A stretch of 25,942 bases of DNA from a virus (IMGVR_UViG_2563366768_000033); one strand, 5' to 3'. Shown: positions 10,487 through 17,893, counted from the stretch's first letter. Notes: a model not told the origin generated them from the letters alone. Translations and numbers: made by a program.

Positions 10487-11230
10487 ATGGCAACTACATG
10501 TTCAGTTATATTGATTTTGGAGTCCTTTGATGTTTATTTCGGAAAAGAGAGTGTGTTTCTGGAGAGAGGTTCATCTGTACTTGTCGACTCTAGCTCTAGA
10601 GATTTTTTCCTGACATATCCTGAAAGAGTGATAGTGGCGGATTTTGGCGCTGAGTTTATTAGTCGCTATTTGAAAGCTAATAACTTAAGGGATATTTCTG
10701 ATTGTAGGGAATATCCATCTTATTTAAAAATAAACTTTGCTGACTTCAGTTTAATTAAAGGATTAATTAGTTGGGCTAATCACTGTGCTGAATACATAGA
10801 AATTTTTGATGAGTCTATTGCTTTTACATGTCTCTCTGCATTTTCTTCTGAAAAACAATTTGGAGTATTTCTGTTTGGATGTTTGAAAAGCACAGGGGCT
10901 AAAGTTAAAACGATTATTCATACGGATTTATCTGCACCATGGCGTCTTAAGGATATATCATCAAGATTATATCTCAGCGAAAGTTTACTAAAGAGGAAAT
11001 TGAAAGAAGAGGGGGTATCATTCAGTAAGATCATACTTGATGAGAGGATGCAAATGGCTGAATATTTACTCAGCACTCGTTGTTATCCTATTAGTAAAGT
11101 AGCTAAGGTCTGTGGTTATGCCAGTGTCTCATACTTTACTTATGTATTTAGACGTTATTTTGGTGTTTCTCCAAGTCAATACTCTCAGAGGAGTTCAGAA
11201 AGTAAAATTCTTACTCACCAGGGAATCTGA
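10487..11230 (+). CDS. AraC/XylS-family transcriptional regulator (AppY/Rns-like)
   Basis: 247-aa product with C-terminal dual HTH (WRLKDISSRLYLSESLLKRKLKEEGVSFSKIILDERMQMAEYLL...KVAKVCGYASVSYFTYVFRRYFGVSPSQY); AT-rich gene and upstream region; GGGGG Shine-Dalgarno before the ATG. Confidence 0.75.
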   Translation: MATTCSVILILESFDVYFGKESVFLERGSSVLVDSSSRDFFLTYPERVIVADFGAEFISRYLKANNLRDISDCREYPSYLKINFADFSLIKGLISWANHCAEYIEIFDESIAFTCLSAFSSEKQFGVFLFGCLKSTGAKVKTIIHTDLSAPWRLKDISSRLYLSESLLKRKLKEEGVSFSKIILDERMQMAEYLLSTRCYPISKVAKVCGYASVSYFTYVFRRYFGVSPSQYSQRSSESKILTHQGI

Positions 11231-11271: not shown

Positions 11272-11720
11272 TTAAGTTAACGTTACCCGCTGACGTCGAT
11301 ATTCTCGCGGAGAGCGATAACCCAACGCACTGTGCGGATGGTTTTCATTGTAATGTTCGATCGCCACTGCAAGATTATGCAATGCCGTTCTTACATTCGG
11401 TTTCGGCATGAACGCGATGTAGTCTTCCTTCATCGTTTTCACGAACCTTTCTGCAATTCCATTACTCTGAGGACTGCTGATTGCCGTTGTGCAGGGCTCC
11501 AGATTCAACTCTCTGGCGAACTGCCGTGTTTCATGCGCTCTATACGCTGAACCGTTATCTGTCAGCCACTGGATGGACTGTTCCGGTACTTTATCGCCAA
11601 AGCGTTTTTCTATCGCTCCTAACATGACATCCTGCACTGTCGCTTTATCGTAACCTCCCGTGCTTGCGGCCCAGTCTATGGCTTCACGATCGCAACAGTC
11701 CAGGGCGATTCATCTGGGCC
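11272..11720 (-). mobile_element. IS2-family (IS3 group) transposase orfB, 3' fragment only
   Basis: Minus-strand translation ...[72 protein letters not shown]...[14 protein letters not shown] parallels the C-terminal integrase-core region of IS2 InsD as recalled; no orfA, no 5' half and no terminal inverted repeats seen. Confidence 0.7.
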
Positions 11721-11984: not shown

Positions 11985-12030
11985 ATTCGTAATGCGAAGG
12001 TCGTAGGTTCGACTCCTATTATCGGCACCA
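11985..12030 (+). other. direct repeat of the thrW 3' end (46 nt); junction between the two stacked elements
   Basis: ATTCGTAATGCGAAGGTCGTAGGTTCGACTCCTATTATCGGCACCA is identical to thrW 1399-1444; followed 160 bp later by a P4-type integrase gene. Confidence 0.85.
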
Positions 12031-12192
12031 TCTCAACTTCCTCAAACGTCCGTATTAGTCCATAAAATCTCTGATTTATAACATTTTTTATTCTTTTAAG
12101 TCCATAGTAGTCCGTAACCATCCAGTAGAATCCGGTACTGAATGTGTATAGGATTGTGTATATGTTCCTGTTCGGTCTGGATTCCTATACAC

Positions 12193-13374
12193 ATGCCTTT
12201 AAACGATATGCAGATTCGCCGCGCTAAGCCTGAAGCTAAAGCCTATACATTTGGAGATGGGCTAGGGTTGTCATTACTTATAGAACCTAATGGAAGCAAG
12301 AGTTGGCGGTTCCGCTATCGCTATGCCGGCAAACCCAAAATGATCTCGCTTGGTGTTTACCCAACGATCACCCTTGCCGATGCTCGTTCCCGTCGTGATG
12401 AAGCTCGAAAACTTGTGGCAGAAGGAAAGAACCCTAGTGAGGTTCGAAAAGAGCAAAAGCTAGCTATGCAAACAGAGTCAGAGAACGCCTTCGAAAAGAT
12501 AGCCAGAGAGTGGCATCAACTTAAATCTGCTAAATGGTCGGCGGGATATGCATCAGACATCATGGAAGCGTTTAAGAACGACATTTTTCCTTATGTCGGA
12601 ACAAGGCCTGTGGGAGAGATTAAACCGCTAGAGCTGCTGAACGTTCTGCGTAAAATTGAGAAACGTGGTGCGTTGGAGAAAATGCGCAAAGTGCGGCAGC
12701 GTTGCTCCGAAGTGTTTCGCTACGCAATTGCAACGGGTAGGGCGGAGTACAATCCTGCGGCTGATCTCTCCAGCGCTCTCGAAGTACACCAATCCAATCA
12801 TTTCCCATTCCTAAAAGCTGATGAGATACCTGATTTTCTACGTGCCTTAGAGGGTTACTCCGGGAGTAAGCTTGTCCAGATAGCCACGAAATTACTGATG
12901 ATTACGGGTGTGAGAACCATCGAATTACGCGCGGCATTATGGCAAGAATTTGATCTGGATAACGCTATTTGGGAAATTCCTGCTGAAAGGATGAAAATGC
13001 GTAGGCCACATCTTGTGCCCTTATCATCTCAAGCGGTAGATTTACTCAATGAACTCAAGATCATGACAGGGAACTATCGTTATGTTTTTCCAGGGCGGAA
13101 CGATCCGAATAGGCCAATGAGCGAAGCGAGTATAAATCAAGCCATTAAGCGTATTGGGTATGGAGGAAAAGTCACTGGACATGGTTTTCGTCATACCCTT
13201 TCTACAATCCTGCATGAGCAAGGTTTTGAGAGTGCTTGGATTGAAATCCAGTTGGCTCATGTAGATAAAAATTCTATTAGGGGGACTTATAACCATGCTC
13301 AATATTTTAGTGGAAGGAAGTCTATGATGGACTGGTACAGTAATTTGATATTTGAAAGACTAAAAAGGAGTTAA
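12193..13374 (+). CDS. P4-family tyrosine integrase
   Basis: From ATG at 12193: MPLNDMQIRRAKPEAKAYTFGDGLGLSLLIEPNGSKSWRFRYRYAGKPKMISLGVYP... (P4/CP4-57-type N-terminus) with C-terminal catalytic region HGFRHTLSTILHEQG...RGTYNH; the ORF track's upstream extension is not used. Confidence 0.9.
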   Translation: MPLNDMQIRRAKPEAKAYTFGDGLGLSLLIEPNGSKSWRFRYRYAGKPKMISLGVYPTITLADARSRRDEARKLVAEGKNPSEVRKEQKLAMQTESENAFEKIAREWHQLKSAKWSAGYASDIMEAFKNDIFPYVGTRPVGEIKPLELLNVLRKIEKRGALEKMRKVRQRCSEVFRYAIATGRAEYNPAADLSSALEVHQSNHFPFLKADEIPDFLRALEGYSGSKLVQIATKLLMITGVRTIELRAALWQEFDLDNAIWEIPAERMKMRRPHLVPLSSQAVDLLNELKIMTGNYRYVFPGRNDPNRPMSEASINQAIKRIGYGGKVTGHGFRHTLSTILHEQGFESAWIEIQLAHVDKNSIRGTYNHAQYFSGRKSMMDWYSNLIFERLKRS

Positions 13375-13377
13375 TTT

Positions 13378-13794
13378 GTGTCTCAACCACTTTCGGAAAT
13401 ATTGACATGGGATGATGAACAATGGGAGGTATTTGTCCATGATTGGCTTATTGTCTGTAAATCAGATGATTACCCGTGGAGCGAACGTTTGGGAGGAGCT
13501 GGAGATAAAGGTAGAGACGTTGTTGGATATAAATCGGATCCTAACGTAGAAGGTTATTCTTGGGATAATTATCAATGCAAACTGTACAAAAAAAGTTTAG
13601 GGTTCTCTGATGTTGTAGTTGAGTTTGGAAAACTTATCTATTTTACTCTGAATGGTGATTATCCCATCCCTCAGAAGTACTTTTTTGTGGCACCCTATGA
13701 TTTATCTACTACATTTTCTAATTTATTGAAAAATAAAAACGAGCTTAAAAAAGCAGTCCTTGATTCATGGGATTCAGCAATTTCAAAAAAATAA
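13378..13794 (+). CDS. cargo gene 1, N-terminal part: Mrr-like PD-(D/E)xK nuclease domain (frame broken at A7 tract 13785-13791)
   Basis: GTG start 7 nt after AAGGAG (13365-13370) and 4 nt after the int stop; product contains GGAGDKGRDVVGY...(17 aa)...YQCKLY, the GxGDxGxD / QxK pattern of Mrr-type nuclease cores. Very AT-rich. Confidence 0.6.
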   Translation: MSQPLSEILTWDDEQWEVFVHDWLIVCKSDDYPWSERLGGAGDKGRDVVGYKSDPNVEGYSWDNYQCKLYKKSLGFSDVVVEFGKLIYFTLNGDYPIPQKYFFVAPYDLSTTFSNLLKNKNELKKAVLDSWDSAISKK

Positions 13795-14384
13795 CTAAAA
13801 AGATTGATATTCCATTAGATGATGAAATAAAAAAATATATTGAGGATTTTGATTTTAGTATTTTTTACTCTCTACCCTTATCATTGATTTTAAATGATAT
13901 TGCAAATACACACCTTTATTTTAAGTACTTTAACGAGCTGTATGTCGTGAGAATCCCTCCAAATGAAATTCCAACATACAATTCAAAAAAAGAGTCTGTA
14001 TATGTTAATGCACTGCTTCAAGCCTATTCAGAGCATGGAAATAAAACTTATAGTTCTTTCTTAGAGCTTGATGATCCATACAGACGACACTTTAATAATA
14101 GTAGAAATGATTTTTATTTTGCATCTTCGCTTGAGGTTTTTGTCCGCGAAGTATTTAAAGATGATGTATTCAAAGCATTGAAATGTTACATTTCATCTTC
14201 AATTGAACCCGTCTTTTATGAAGACCATAATTATGCATTTATTAGGTGTAATGCAGTCTTGAAGCAGGCTGTTCTGACACCAATTGCACATTCAGTACTA
14301 TCAAAAATATGTGAAGCAAATGATAAAAAAGGAATATGCCATCATTTGGTTAATGATGGTGAAGTAATTTGGACGGTGAGATAA
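13767..14384 (+). CDS. cargo gene 1, C-terminal part (unknown domain); probably the continuation of 13378-13794
   Basis: This frame is open from 13764 and overlaps the previous ORF's end across an A7 run; one extra A would join them into a single ORF of about 336 codons. Stop TAA at 14382-14384 overlaps the next ATG. Confidence 0.55.
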   Translation: MGFSNFKKITKKIDIPLDDEIKKYIEDFDFSIFYSLPLSLILNDIANTHLYFKYFNELYVVRIPPNEIPTYNSKKESVYVNALLQAYSEHGNKTYSSFLELDDPYRRHFNNSRNDFYFASSLEVFVREVFKDDVFKALKCYISSSIEPVFYEDHNYAFIRCNAVLKQAVLTPIAHSVLSKICEANDKKGICHHLVNDGEVIWTVR

Positions 14385-14842
14385 TGGTTAGAATTTATAA
14401 TTCAAGTTTAGAAGTGGCATGTCGAATGGCGAAAGTGCTCGTCGCTATTTATCCTTCTTCATTAAGCCTTGAACGGCTTATTTGTTTTGATTTTATTTTA
14501 GTAAATCTTAAGGATTTTTTACCTGAAGAGATTAGTCTTCATCCTCCAATACCCCGTAGAGATGCTCAGTTAGCCCTAAAACGAGAGATTGTTTTAGAAT
14601 CATTGGCTTTGTTGCAAGGCTATGAACTAGCCTCAAAAATTTATACACATCGTGGTTTTGTATATAAAGCTTCTGAAAAAACATATGCATTTACAAATTC
14701 TCTACATAATGAATATGTTGCGCAGATGGAGCATAATATAAATTTGGTGGTTAAGTTATATAGTGATATTCCTGATGAGCAGTTGCAATCAATTATAAAA
14801 AATAAAATTGGCAAATATGATATGGAATTTAATTATGAATGA
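14384..14842 (+). CDS. cargo gene 2: small protein (152 aa), predicted mostly helical; candidate middle component
   Basis: ATG at 14384 overlaps the upstream stop (TAATG); product MVRIYNSSLEVACRMAKVLVAIYPSSLSLERLICFDF...; its stop overlaps the next gene's ATG (ATGAATGA). Confidence 0.6.
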   Translation: MVRIYNSSLEVACRMAKVLVAIYPSSLSLERLICFDFILVNLKDFLPEEISLHPPIPRRDAQLALKREIVLESLALLQGYELASKIYTHRGFVYKASEKTYAFTNSLHNEYVAQMEHNINLVVKLYSDIPDEQLQSIIKNKIGKYDMEFNYE

Positions 14843-15467
14843 CAATTTTTTTACGTTCAGAAAAATAAAGGTAACCGGATTCAATAAATTAGATGCTATA
14901 ATTGAATTTGGTTCTAAATTGACTATTTTATATGGTGGTTCTGACTCTGGAAAAACATACATATATTATTTGATTCGATATTTATTAGGGAGTGAAAAAC
15001 TAAAAAATAAAGATATCGATCATGCTCAAGGTTATGATTTAGCCTATCTGGAATTTAATTTTCAAGGTAGGGTAATGACAATTGAGAGGTCTCTTCAGGA
15101 TAGCGCCCATTACAGATTATATGATTCGAGCATTGAAAATGTTAGTGAAGCTAATCTGTTGATGGTTTTTTCCAAAAGTGCTTCGTCTAAAAAGAGTTTT
15201 TCATCATACTTTTATGGTAGGTTGAATTTCAAAGAGGCTAAAGTAAGAACAAACTTAAGTAATACTCTTCATAAATTTAATCTTAATAATGTTTTTGAAT
15301 TTTTTTGTATTGATGAATTAAGAGTGTTAACTGAGAAGTCGTTAATTCTTTCTGATATTCCTAGCGAGGAGACAAAAAGAAAGTCTGAATTTAAATTCCT
15401 TTTAACTCAGAGAGATGATACTAACTCCTTAGCAGAAAAACCAAATAAAAAAGCAAGATATTTTTAA
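14835..15467 (+). CDS. cargo gene 3, N-terminal head of an SMC/Rad50-like ABC ATPase (Walker A); ends at an in-frame TAA
   Basis: MNDNFFTFRKIKVTGFNKLDAIIEFGSKLTILYGGSDSGKTYIYYLIRYLLG: classic SMC/RecF-type N-terminus with Walker A GGSDSGKT. The ORF stops at TAA 15465-15467 inside a T5A7 tract while the same frame stays open downstream. Confidence 0.7.
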   Translation: MNDNFFTFRKIKVTGFNKLDAIIEFGSKLTILYGGSDSGKTYIYYLIRYLLGSEKLKNKDIDHAQGYDLAYLEFNFQGRVMTIERSLQDSAHYRLYDSSIENVSEANLLMVFSKSASSKKSFSSYFYGRLNFKEAKVRTNLSNTLHKFNLNNVFEFFCIDELRVLTEKSLILSDIPSEETKRKSEFKFLLTQRDDTNSLAEKPNKKARYF

Positions 15468-16088
15468 AAAAATCAAATTGCAAATATTTATGAGGAATTG
15501 AAAGCGCAATTAATTTATCCTGAATATGATCAAGTCATTGTTTCAAGAGAACTTGAGAAAGTAGAGCAAGATATTGAATCATCGAAAGATATATTGAAAG
15601 GTATTGTTGATGCACTTGATGATAAGAAGCAATTATTAAAAGAGTTAAGTGATGAATTATATTCAATCAGTGACAGGGAAAAATACTTATCATTACTCAT
15701 TGAAAGATTTAGTCTTCTTAAAGACCAATACTTTATAGATCTACAAAGAATAGATGTTGTATCACAGGCGAATTTCTATTTAAATAATTTTGCAGATATT
15801 TATTGTGAGTTCTGTAATACACCGCAAAAAAAAGAAAATGAAATATCATATGATGATTGTTTTTTGTCGTGTAATGCAGAAAAATTGAAAATCAAAAGCC
15901 AGCTGAAAGGATTAATTGAATCAATCGGATCTAATGTTCGCGAACATGAATTAATTATGTTAAGAAAAAATGATGTTAATGAAATTTATCAATCAGAAAA
16001 AAGTGATTTTAAGACGTTAGAAGATAAAAATATAAAACAATACATTCATCTCTTGAATCACTTTATGAATATAAAGACAATCTTTTAA
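15468..16088 (+). CDS. cargo gene 3 continued: coiled-coil segment with CxxC...CxxxC zinc-hook-like motif
   Basis: Same frame as 14835-15467, open right after the TAA, with no ATG for about 150 codons (the ORF track uses TTG at 15498). Heptad-like charged/leucine-rich sequence and YCEFCN...(14 aa)...CFLSCN (15804-15872). Confidence 0.55.
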   Translation, partial: KNQIANIYEELKAQLIYPEYDQVIVSRELEKVEQDIESSKDILKGIVDALDDKKQLLKELSDELYSISDREKYLSLLIERFSLLKDQYFIDLQRIDVVSQANFYLNNFADIYCEFCNTPQKKENEISYDDCFLSCNAEKLKIKSQLKGLIESIGSNVREHELIMLRKNDVNEIYQSEKSDFKTLEDKNIKQYIHLLNHFMNIKTIF

Positions 16089-16654
16089 TGGATCACACAA
16101 AACATAGCATTCTATCTTCATTACAAGATAAAGAAGATGATGTTGACGAACTTAAATACTCCGCCGAGGACTTTGACTCCTTAACAGTAGCTGATTTGTA
16201 TGATATAGAAATAGCGATGCAAGACTTTTTGAATGATATAAATTTTGAAAATTCTAAAGATAACAAAGTGCGATTTGACGAAGATACATATGACTTTAAT
16301 ATCAATGGGAAACGCCGAGGAATGTTTGGTAAAGGTACCCGTGCAGTAATGCATGCTATATTTACCATTTGCTTTGCGGAATTTTTATCAAGAAAAGGGA
16401 ATCCATTCATTGGATTTGTTGTGCTTGATAGTCCATTAGTGACGCACTTTGATAAAGATAGAGGGGGTTCTCTATCGGATGTTAATAGCGTCAGTCTCAG
16501 TGATTCATTTTATCACGCATTAATCAAAAGGGACTATAATTTCCAGATTGTAATTCTTGAGAATAAAGGTCCGACGTTCCAAATAAAAATTAATGATGCA
16601 AATAAAATCCATAACTTAAATAAGAATGGAAGCTCTGGTTTTTATCCTGTTTAA
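16088..16654 (+). CDS. cargo gene 3, C-terminal ABC head segment (Walker B-like FIGFVVLDSP), separate ORF or frame-shifted continuation
   Basis: ATG overlaps the upstream stop (TAATG); product contains ...GKGTRAVMHAIFTICFAEFLSRKGNPFIGFVVLDSPLVTHFD, i.e. a run of hydrophobics ending in D as in Walker B, with Ser where the catalytic Glu normally sits. Confidence 0.55.
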   Translation: MDHTKHSILSSLQDKEDDVDELKYSAEDFDSLTVADLYDIEIAMQDFLNDINFENSKDNKVRFDEDTYDFNINGKRRGMFGKGTRAVMHAIFTICFAEFLSRKGNPFIGFVVLDSPLVTHFDKDRGGSLSDVNSVSLSDSFYHALIKRDYNFQIVILENKGPTFQIKINDANKIHNLNKNGSSGFYPV

Positions 16655-17063
16655 TACATTAAAAATATAACTGCTAATTGGGGTGCTCGAAATTATATTT
16701 CGTTTCGAGCGCTCAGTTCATTTCTAAATAATTTGCAAAATTATTTTGGGTACTTTCGCCTCTACACTTCCTTCGGGTGGTTCCACAATAATGGATCTCA
16801 CCGGCGTTTGATATTTTATAATCTAACCCCTTAGCGCGCGCAGCCCCCCACGCCTGCTCGCTTCGCTTAACAGACTGGTTTTCATGCATTCCGCAAATCG
16901 TCTCAGAAGCCACCACACAAGGGCTTTCGCGTCAAAAATGGTGCATGAGAATCATGCGTTTTCATGCGCTATAGACATGCACTCATGCGCTCTCAGGCCA
17001 GCCAGGGAAAAGGCGTAAAAAATCCCAGTACTGGACCGGGATTACGTGGGCTTTTTTTGCTAA

Positions 17064-17336
17064 TCAGACAGGAATTTGCTGACGGCTTGACAGCTTTGAC
17101 GCGGAGCCATAGCGATTGAGAGTTTGCTGTTGTTTTTCCGGCATTTGTGCTTTCTCTGATTCCTGTTCATTGCGCCGGGGCTTCATGATTATCGTATCCA
17201 CACTTTCCAGTGCGGTAAATGTGTAGGAACATTCAAGATTCTGGCACTGATACCATGAGCGTTTAACCGATGGTGCTTCATAGGCGGAGGTTCTGGCGTG
17301 TGCCGTCGTACCGCATTCGGGACATTTAAGTGCCAT
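17064..17336 (-). CDS. Ogr/Delta-family zinc-finger late-gene activator (90 aa)
   Basis: MALKCPECGTTAHARTSAYEAPSVKRSWYQCQNLECSYTFTALESV: CxxC...CxxxxC arrangement and sequence typical of P2 Ogr / P4 Delta. Confidence 0.85.
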   Translation of the reverse strand: MALKCPECGTTAHARTSAYEAPSVKRSWYQCQNLECSYTFTALESVDTIIMKPRRNEQESEKAQMPEKQQQTLNRYGSASKLSSRQQIPV

Positions 17337-17341
17337 TAATA

Positions 17342-17893
17342 TTACTCCTGCATGCCGTTAATGTAATCCAGACGTTGCTGAAAGCGCAGTTGTTGTGCAG
17401 GGGTGTAAGAGCTCTGGCAATCACGAACCATCATGGGGTCAGGCATCACACCGGATTCATCCAGAATCATACGATAATCCCCGGCAATTTCAGGCGGTGT
17501 TATTGCCAGCTGGCGAACCAGAGCATTGCGTAATATACGGGACGCAACGTCAACCCCTCCGCGCCCCTTCAGGAACGGAGCCAGTGCAGATGTCAGGGCT
17601 GCTCCATTCGCCTGCATAAAATTGCTGAGAGCGTCTTCTGTGCAGGCCTCCATCAGTTGATGCTGCGAGTAAATGCATTCGCGCGCAGCACAGTTAATTT
17701 GCCATTTCAGCACATCCAGATGTTCCCGCTGTAATTCGAGCTGTCGAGCATAATCTGCTGGTTTTTCCATGGCAGTGAGGAGTGATTCTATCTGTTGTTC
17801 AACGGCTTTTCGGCTCTCACTATGTCCAGCCCACAGAATACGGGCATTTCTAAAACTGATAAGCGCTTGGTCTGGAGTGACTCGGGCCATCAT
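17342..17893 (-). CDS. Psu-like protein (P4 polarity suppression / capsid decoration family)
   Basis: 183-aa product with ...DVLKWQINCAARECIYSQHQ...NFMQANGAALTSALAPFL, resembling recalled P4 Psu (...VRKWQVNQAAGRYI...DFMQQHGTALAAALAP...); start overlaps the upstream gene's stop (ATGA). Confidence 0.7.
   Translation of the reverse strand: MMARVTPDQALISFRNARILWAGHSESRKAVEQQIESLLTAMEKPADYARQLELQREHLDVLKWQINCAARECIYSQHQLMEACTEDALSNFMQANGAALTSALAPFLKGRGGVDVASRILRNALVRQLAITPPEIAGDYRMILDESGVMPDPMMVRDCQSSYTPAQQLRFQQRLDYINGMQE

Follow-up and report, generated by a model that had tools for sequence, protein, structure and literature searches.

We analysed a window of 25,942 nucleotides (nt) from the virus IMGVR_UViG_2563366768_000033. 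Our focus is the region 13378-16654, which is 100% identical to positions 311992-315268 of Escherichia coli O157:H7 Sakai (NC_002695.2, ECs_0290 to ECs_0293), where the Sakai annotation calls the host element “prophage Sp2, P4-like phage.” The ORF listing gives six fragments of open reading frames (ORFs) in this region: 13378-13794 and 13767-14384 make up lmuA, 14384-14842 is lmuC, and 14835-15467, 15498-16088 and 16088-16654 make up lmuB. Together they are, very probably, a short (type II) Lamassu operon, or ABC-three component (ABC-3C) operon, in the order lmuA-lmuC-lmuB and with an Mrr-type effector, which is carried by the P4-like satellite as pseudogenised cargo. A first-pass annotation, made from the sequence alone, had proposed three genes with the boundaries 13378-14384, 14384-14842 and 14835-16654, encoding an Mrr-like nuclease, a small protein and an SMC/Rad50-like ATPase. 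RefSeq places the gene boundaries at the same positions. There are indeed three genes by family and by boundaries, but they are not open, and only the second is intact.

The assignment to Lamassu is carried by profile searches. The PADLOC models of LmuA, LmuC and LmuB match at E=1e-36 to 1e-50, with 1.6e-21 for the middle fragment of LmuB (Table 1). The fragments tile the models almost completely, covering positions 10-333 of 336 of the LmuA profile and 3-608 of 610 of the LmuB profile. Pfam, a search of solved structures with an LmuB profile and structure comparisons of LmuA (see below) point to the same architecture of nuclease, middle component and SMC/Rad50-like ATPase, which the first-pass annotation had recognized from motifs. 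That annotation had also left room for a divergent or undescribed variant. The strong matches to the PADLOC models and to the ABC-3C families of Pfam speak against this, as does the publication of the locus under the name Lamassu-var (PMC11754643). RefSeq product names are already those of “ABC-three component system” proteins. This is a known system, already reported from this clade and pseudogenised here, and its novelty is low.

Table 1. Features of the Lamassu region, its lesions and the neighbouring genes, in window coordinates (aa, amino acids).
Feature	Position	Strand	Evidence or remark
int, P4-type tyrosine integrase (intS, ECs_0289)	12193-13374	+	Pfam Arm-DNA-bind_3, Phage_int_M, Phage_integrase; Sakai annotation
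lmuA 5' fragment, Mrr-like PD-(D/E)xK nuclease domain; GTG start, premature TAA	13378-13794	+	PADLOC LmuA PDLC03852 E=9e-41, profile 10-140 of 336
Lesion 1, 1-nt deletion (-1 frameshift) in A7 tract, lmuA	13785-13791	+	one base missing at 13787 relative to Proteus and Pantoea
lmuA 3' fragment, linker and ABC-3C CTD6 domain	13792-14384 (annotated ORF 13767-14384)	+	PADLOC LmuA E=3.9e-44, profile 141-333; Pfam CTD6 PF20282 E=7.7e-30
lmuC, middle component MC2, 152 aa, sole intact gene of the three	14384-14842	+	PADLOC LmuC PDLC03871 E=2.5e-36; Pfam MC2 PF20288 E=6e-30
lmuB fragment 1, N-terminal half of ATPase head, ends at premature TAA	14835-15467	+	PADLOC LmuB PDLC03863 E=8.4e-50, profile 3-199 of 610; Pfam AAA_23, weak SMC_N
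Lesion 2, nonsense TAA (T>A at 15466), lmuB	15465-15467	+	Leu (FLK) in all homologues
lmuB fragment 2, coiled-coil arm with CxxC zinc-hook motif	15468-16030 (annotated ORF 15498-16088)	+	PADLOC LmuB E=1.6e-21, profile 231-412
Lesion 3, 1-nt deletion (-1 frameshift) in A5 tract, lmuB	16026-16030	+	gap 16025/16026 relative to intact Proteus (A6) and Pantoea
lmuB fragment 3, descending coiled coil and C-terminal half of head	16028-16654 (annotated ORF 16088-16654)	+	PADLOC LmuB E=5.1e-37, profile 428-608; weak Pfam DUF3732
Possible operon terminator, hairpin with 13-bp stem, 27 nt past lmuB stop	16681-16714	+	consensus terminator scan, pattern match only
ogr/delta-like zinc-finger activator, right border of cargo slot	17064-17336	-	Pfam Ogr_Delta E=1e-16
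psu, polarity suppression protein	17342-17893	-	Pfam Psu E=4.8e-42
sid-like gene	17890-18642	-	Pfam

LmuA has both an N-terminal effector domain and the Lamassu-specific C-terminal docking domain. The nuclease motif (GDKGRD at 13492-13518, QCK at 13573-13581) is present as the first-pass annotation had described it, and in GGAGDKGRD...QCK the residues G42, D43, G45, D47, Q66, C67 and K68 are invariant among 53 LmuA homologues. The Pfam family Mrr_cat (PF04471) gives the window fragment 12.2 bits (E=0.2; cut-off 21) and matches 7 of the 53 full-length homologues, with E down to 1.6e-6. We modelled the fold on an intact homologue (P0038, 67% identical), including both window fragments in the alignment. 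The AlphaFold model has a predicted local distance difference test (pLDDT) score of 94. Its best Foldseek matches are the solved LmuA chains 9nxx, 9ny1 and 9hqx, followed by Cap4 and MspJI, so the structure prediction that had been suggested as a check leads to solved LmuA and to Mrr-type restriction nucleases. From this model, the effector domain is predicted to be an Mrr-type PD-(D/E)xK nuclease, with catalytic D...(E/Q)xK in a restriction-endonuclease-like fold. By analogy with solved complexes, the CTD6 domain would dock LmuA on LmuB/LmuC. At the sequence level, phmmer gave no meaningful match between the repaired LmuA and PDB sequences, and a profile of LmuA homologues likewise found nothing there.

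The small protein noticed in gene 2 is LmuC, which aligns with its homologues at equal length and without gaps. In LmuB, the Walker A motif GGSDSGKT (14934-14957, G34-T41) is invariant across nine homologues of 24-87% identity, as are D532, S533 and P534 of the Walker B motif FVVLD-S (16415-16432) in the same nine. Both motifs had been noticed at first pass, together with the Ser in place of the usual catalytic Glu. This Ser is present and invariant, but it is a known trait of short Lamassu systems rather than a peculiarity of the Sakai copy: their Walker B follows hhhhD[Q/S/T/E], which is thought to mean slow ATP hydrolysis (PMC12663957). The pair of cysteine motifs proposed for the coiled coil was half right. 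CxxC (15804-15815) has C324 and C327 invariant in LmuB homologues, whereas CxxxC (CFLSC) is variable, its first Cys being replaced by Tyr in the nearest homologues. At residues 324-327, the CxxC corresponds to the LmuB zinc hook, of which short LmuB proteins have zero, one or two copies (PMC12663957). In the third fragment the frame is open from 16028 and includes GKGxR at residues 499-503. A profile of LmuB homologues searched against the PDB found solved LmuB chains (9hqu, E=4.6e-11; 9uxl; 9ny5) and then SMC and Rad50 heads; phmmer with the repaired LmuB gave no meaningful match to PDB sequences.

How far is this copy from an intact one? We called lesions by DNA alignment with the intact genes of Proteus and Pantoea, and exactly two 1-nt gaps and one change of TTA to TAA separate the Sakai copy from these relatives. 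Inserting one A at the first lesion gives a 335-aa ORF reading ...SKKITKK...; the frames of lmuA split at 13794/13767, past the nuclease domain and ahead of the docking domain. Repair of the third lesion gives EDKKYKTIH, against EGKKYKKIH in Proteus. With all three lesions repaired, the proteins have 335, 152 and 606 aa, equal in length to the intact homologues. Since lmuA is frameshifted and lmuB is in three pieces, the locus is a pseudogenised remnant that most likely gives no Lamassu defence. It is a Lamassu pseudo-operon by descent and not a functional member of the family, because its three components are not all intact.

The distribution of the locus in E. coli points the same way. Among 5426 complete E. 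coli genomes, 309 carry it, all at at least 99% identity and essentially all in the O157:H7/O55:H7 clade; neither megablast nor blastn (“distant”) found a diverged or intact copy elsewhere in the species in this set. Annotations were listed for roughly 45 distinct records of the 309 carriers, and not one of these has three intact genes. We read Sakai base by base against TB182A, RM12579, DEC5B, CB9615, ECP19-598, 2017C-4109, FSIS11705876 and NJS001; EDL933 is listed at 100% identity and has the same fragmented annotation. Both 1-nt deletions are in all ten copies read, and no lesion is reversed in any of them. The TAA at 15466 is confined to the O157-type copies compared, with TTA in four O55:H7 strains and in the outgroups. 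Each of these four strains has extra lesions of its own: a deletion at 16002 in three of them, including TB182A, where it is a second lmuB deletion absent from Sakai; an insertion at 15299 plus CAA>TAA in CB9615; and an insertion at 15964 in DEC5B. Assemblies differing in length by 1-2 nt have extra indels and no reversions. The first-pass proposal of a working candidate defence system therefore fails on the three inactivating lesions in lmuA and lmuB and on the presence of both frameshifts in every E. coli copy read.

Between species, the ratio of nonsynonymous to synonymous substitution rates (dN/dS) is 0.06-0.12, which indicates strong purifying selection. Within the E. coli clade there are 10 nonsynonymous or nonsense substitutions against 1 synonymous substitution, a small number from codons read by hand, and this pattern fits a recent loss of constraint. 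Most likely, O55:H7 and O157:H7 inherited both frameshifts from their common ancestor, and later lineages added private lesions. On the simplest account, the operon still worked until shortly before this ancestor, was inactivated there by the two frameshifts, and has been drifting since.

Larger changes were also seen among the copies. Three O157:H7 strains have a copy of IS1203 inserted within the locus, another lacks its first 376 bp, and in yet another only the last 314 bp are left. There are 312 matching places in all, one of them on a plasmid record. An E. coli-like assembly of the same satellite (L016 2383-3417, Logan SRR7251010) has lmuC joined in frame to an N-terminal portion of lmuB. 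The fusion (P0027) has 344 aa, with 95% identity to the repaired LmuB over its LmuB portion; in this assembly lmuB is apparently shortened and lmuA is still split. P0027 is thus no intact copy but another rearranged fragment, a further variant of decay.

Intact relatives exist in other genera. In a synteny survey, which the first-pass annotation had also suggested, lmuA, lmuC and lmuB were found together in the same order, with called coordinates abutting or overlapping, in seven other loci. LmuB identity to these is 87% for Proteus mirabilis, 75% for the three loci of Pantoea alhagi and two related assemblies, about 45% for Serratia marcescens and Salmonella enterica, and 24% for a metagenome contig. 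Operons encoding intact proteins of 335, 152 and 606 aa are present in Proteus, Pantoea and Serratia. In Pantoea and Serratia the operon occupies the same slot, int-[lmuACB]-ogr, in a P4-like element that adjoins proA; the Proteus and Salmonella copies are in other islands, the Proteus cassette in a non-P4 island near smpB. Integrase and cargo (window 12142-16656) match the Pantoea and Proteus loci (L003-L006) in one block, with 82-86% identity, whereas the psu/sid module aligns in one piece only, at about 68%, and to Pantoea-type loci only. These alignments therefore suggest that the integrase-cargo module may move as a unit and be exchanged between different mobile elements.

What would an intact version do? 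By analogy with relatives whose mechanism has been studied (PMC12663957; bioRxiv 10.1101/2025.06.23.660979; Millman et al. 10.1101/2022.05.11.491447), an LmuB dimer together with LmuC would keep a single LmuA monomer inactive by way of the C-terminal domain of LmuA. LmuB/LmuC would sense DNA ends or replication(-origin) structures of an invading phage or plasmid, and slow turnover of ATP by LmuB would release LmuA. The freed LmuA would then oligomerize, and its nuclease would degrade DNA, aborting the infection. In the window copy, the nuclease of LmuA is severed from the docking domain and LmuB has neither an unbroken coiled coil nor an unbroken head, and therefore this chain of sensing, release and oligomerization cannot run as described.

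The locus has already been put to a functional test. The Domainator paper (Nucleic Acids Res 2024, PMC11754643) collected hotspots flanked by Psu and integrase from 2718 E. coli genomes. The most frequent hotspot cluster (cluster 1), with 259 loci of “3 to 9 CDSs” (coding sequences), was related to type II Lamassu by PADLOC and named Lamassu-var. A region of O55:H7 TB182A (CP038295 4116517-4120474) was cloned, and smaller plaques of T-even phages were reported at high dilution. Lamassu-var is the same locus as ours: the cloned stretch lies within a TB182A region that is 99.6% identical to window 12001-18868, and the cloned coordinates (NZ_CP038295.1) correspond to about 13378-17336 of the window, from ogr/delta to the base with which the lmuA GTG begins. 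The TB182A record has lmuA in pieces of 138 + 205 aa and lmuB in pieces of 394 + 188 aa, with one frameshift in lmuA and two in lmuB. The Sakai copy differs from it by the extra nonsense codon and by the absence of the lmuB deletion at 16002. Lamassu-var was presented as an intact, functional and undescribed variant, with the frameshifts unmentioned (PMC11754643), whereas lmuA and lmuB are disrupted in all copies read here. Furthermore, the insert coordinates start exactly at the start codon of lmuA and therefore include no upstream promoter or ribosome-binding site. This absence, or the presence of the ogr/delta activator gene, could have affected the reported plaque phenotype. If the cloned insert was unrepaired, the weak phenotype came from a disrupted operon without an upstream promoter.

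Several points nevertheless weigh against the view that the locus is dead. The smaller T-even plaques were reported from a region whose genome record is already frameshifted (PMC11754643), so some effect may come from the fragmented locus or from another part of the insert. The lesion in lmuA creates A_AAA_AAA followed by TAA, where a -1 ribosomal slip would recreate the ancestral protein, and a little full-length LmuA may arise in this way. Our base-by-base reading covers ten of the 309 E. coli copies. Finally, the mechanism outlined above is extrapolated from Cap4-type Lamassu systems, and no complex of the Mrr type has been solved.

The strongest alternative is that the fragmented locus still works, either as a “split” Lamassu, in which nuclease and CTD6 polypeptides of LmuA would assemble with two or three pieces of LmuB, or through -1 recoding at A_AAA_AAA_TAA in lmuA. 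The smaller plaques of T2, T4, T6 and RB69 with the cloned region (PMC11754643) favour it, given the frameshifts of lmuA and lmuB in the record at the cloned coordinates. So does the layout of the pieces, with the lmuA break between the nuclease core and the CTD6 region of Pfam and the ATG of the third lmuB fragment overlapping the preceding stop codon. However, the published phenotype is weak and seen only at the highest dilutions, and it was obtained with an insert that, by its coordinates, begins at the lmuA GTG without upstream promoter and includes ogr/delta. Every lineage examined has different further disruptive mutations in lmuB, as expected without selection, whereas in the intact orthologues each gene is one ORF, with purifying selection acting on it. 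The A-tracts are interrupted in these orthologues (CAATAAAATAA in Proteus, CAAAGAAAATAA in Pantoea); since they are not conserved, they are not an evolved recoding site, and programmed frameshifting or phase variation as an evolved feature is ruled out. Neither the O157 nonsense codon nor the lmuB frameshift has a slippery context. On balance we regard a still-working fragmented locus as quite improbable.

A pseudogenised Lamassu thus remains our preferred reading, and two other explanations fare worse. The first is that the ATPase belongs to another ABC/SMC-type defence family, such as Gabija, PARIS AriA, Wadjet or Septu. The N-terminal LmuB fragment does match the GajA, AriA and PtuA models weakly (E=1e-6 to 1e-3), but the LmuB models are better by at least 40 orders of magnitude and are covered at full length, the partners LmuA (CTD6) and LmuC (MC2) are specific to ABC-3C/Lamassu, and the structural matches of the effector are solved LmuA. 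Given the size of the score gap and the two partners, we rule this family change out as very improbable indeed. The second, that the frame disruptions are homopolymer errors of sequencing or assembly and the genes are intact in O157:H7, could appeal to the position of both indels in error-prone A-tracts and to extra single-base differences in other A/T tracts of some assemblies, which could be errors, but it is excluded in practice by the many independent assemblies at at least 99% identity (at this level, 80% or more of the region is covered in 308 E. coli genomes, which were produced in many laboratories and on many platforms and among which are the finished Sakai and EDL933) and by both deletions being in all ten copies read, and it also faces a nonsense change that is a substitution and no indel, and a search of 5.8 billion proteins in which E. 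coli yields fragments only, e.g., P0040 (197 aa, 692 member sequences, 100% identity).

The pseudogenised state has practical consequences. In annotations, ECs_0290-0293 and the roughly 300 copies should be described as a pseudogenised Lamassu-Mrr, with lmuA and lmuB as pseudogenes and lmuC intact, and defence inventories of O157:H7 should not count the locus as an active system. For the literature, since the published insert has by its coordinates the lmuA and lmuB frameshifts and no upstream promoter, its weak phenotype says little about the intact system. The right subjects for tests are the intact orthologues of Proteus, Pantoea and Serratia, and the published functional test may need re-examination. 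The locus also documents the decay in place of a defence operon in a hotspot of P4-like satellites, in which the ancestral lesions common to the copies came first and lineage-specific ones later. Was this inactivation, in the ancestor of O55:H7 and O157:H7, selected rather than neutral? We think it unlikely. O157:H7 carries lambdoid prophages and a virulence plasmid, and if the inactivation had been selected, the loss of Lamassu, whose relatives have been linked to the lambda replication origin and to action against plasmid replication (see below), could have helped the lineage to accumulate them. In that case, a pseudogene in all carriers examined would also be a counter-example to the rarity of defence pseudogenes in P4-like satellites described in a recent preprint.

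The surroundings of the operon agree with the origin proposed for it. The element is a P4-like satellite, with the cargo flanked by a P4-type integrase and a psu/delta/sid module. Pfam identifies int, ogr/delta, psu, a sid-like gene, Ash and a D5/Toprim alpha-type primase, and the ORF 19576-19836 lies at the position of AlpA; Sakai annotates it as a transcriptional regulator, and its counterparts in related loci match Phage_AlpA. The first-pass annotation was thus right about the satellite. It was also right about the very AT-rich 3.3-kb block, whose GC content is 0.28-0.33 against about 0.45-0.5 in the flanks. It had placed the block between int and psu. The cargo does follow int directly, the int stop codon (13372-13374) being 3 nt ahead of the lmuA GTG, and psu lies beyond it, but the right neighbour is ogr/delta and not psu itself. 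The Psu of Lamassu-var hotspots is about 31% identical to P4 Psu (PMC11754643). A promoter scan of the AT-rich block gave 20 sites against 19.6 expected in shuffled sequence, i.e., no excess.

Sp2 stands in tandem with the lambda-like remnant Sp1, both downstream of tRNA-Thr(CGU) at 1369-1444. The last 25 nt of this tRNA gene (1420-1444) are repeated exactly at the Sp1/Sp2 junction (12006-12030), and a degenerate repeat (TCCTATTATCG-CACCATTTAAATCAA) lies at the right end of Sp2, at about 24901-24925. Between the alpha-type primase and this right end is a second AT-rich patch (GC 0.28-0.35) with the hypothetical gene ECs_0304, a 318-aa ORF at 23411-24367 on the minus strand that has no Pfam or PADLOC match. 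It could be the cargo of a second accessory slot in the satellite. At the right end of Sp1, an AT-rich gene for an AraC-family regulator (ECs_0287, HTH_AraC/HTH_18, 10487-11230, plus strand) adjoins a partial remnant of an IS3-family (ISEc48) transposase (11272-11637, minus strand).

Among known systems, ABC-3C shows no domain-level difference from this locus: MC2 (PF20288) and CTD6 (PF20282) are shared, at 104.5 and 104.4 bits against cut-offs of about 26-27, and ABC-3C is the earlier name of type II Lamassu (bioRxiv 10.1101/2025.06.23.660979). A “Lamassu variant” that gave no protection in a 2026 preprint on P2/P4 elements was also considered; it is LmuBC_SMEK in the supplement of that preprint, a different subtype, and not relevant here. 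The closest solved systems are DdmABC of Vibrio cholerae (Lamassu Vc-Cap4) and LmuACB of Salmonella (9ny5, 9nxx, 9uxl, 9hqu/9hqx). They too are short Lamassu systems, in which LmuB (about 600-660 aa) has a divergent Walker B, LmuC is small, and LmuA joins an N-terminal nuclease to a C-terminal domain. Their chains are matched by the window LmuB profile and the LmuA model, although identity is only about 10%. They differ in the effector, which is of the Mrr type here and Cap4 in solved Lamassu, and in the zinc hook, as one CxxC hook is kept in the window LmuB and none in Vc-LmuB (PMC12663957). The A1B2C1 stoichiometry, the sensing of DNA ends and the tetramerization of LmuA are features of the solved complexes, and their extension to the Mrr subtype is an extrapolation. 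The LmuB of a relative is enriched at the replication origin of phage lambda, and DdmABC also acts against plasmid replication (PMC12663957; 10.1101/2022.05.11.491447). In the Lamassu-family systems tested, defence was lost on mutation of the SMC ATPase site or the effector domain and on deletion of lmuC (10.1101/2022.05.11.491447). The Lamassu-Mrr of E. coli O150:H5 SE15 showed no similarity to this locus at the DNA level, as blastn (“distant”) in the 5426 E. coli genomes found only the copies of the O157/O55 clade at at least 99% identity. The SE15 system is a member of the Lamassu family, labelled Lamassu-Mrr by its authors, and it works by abortive infection, with collapse of the culture at high multiplicity of infection (10.1101/2022.05.11.491447). 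It is intact and protective, whereas the copy in the window is broken.

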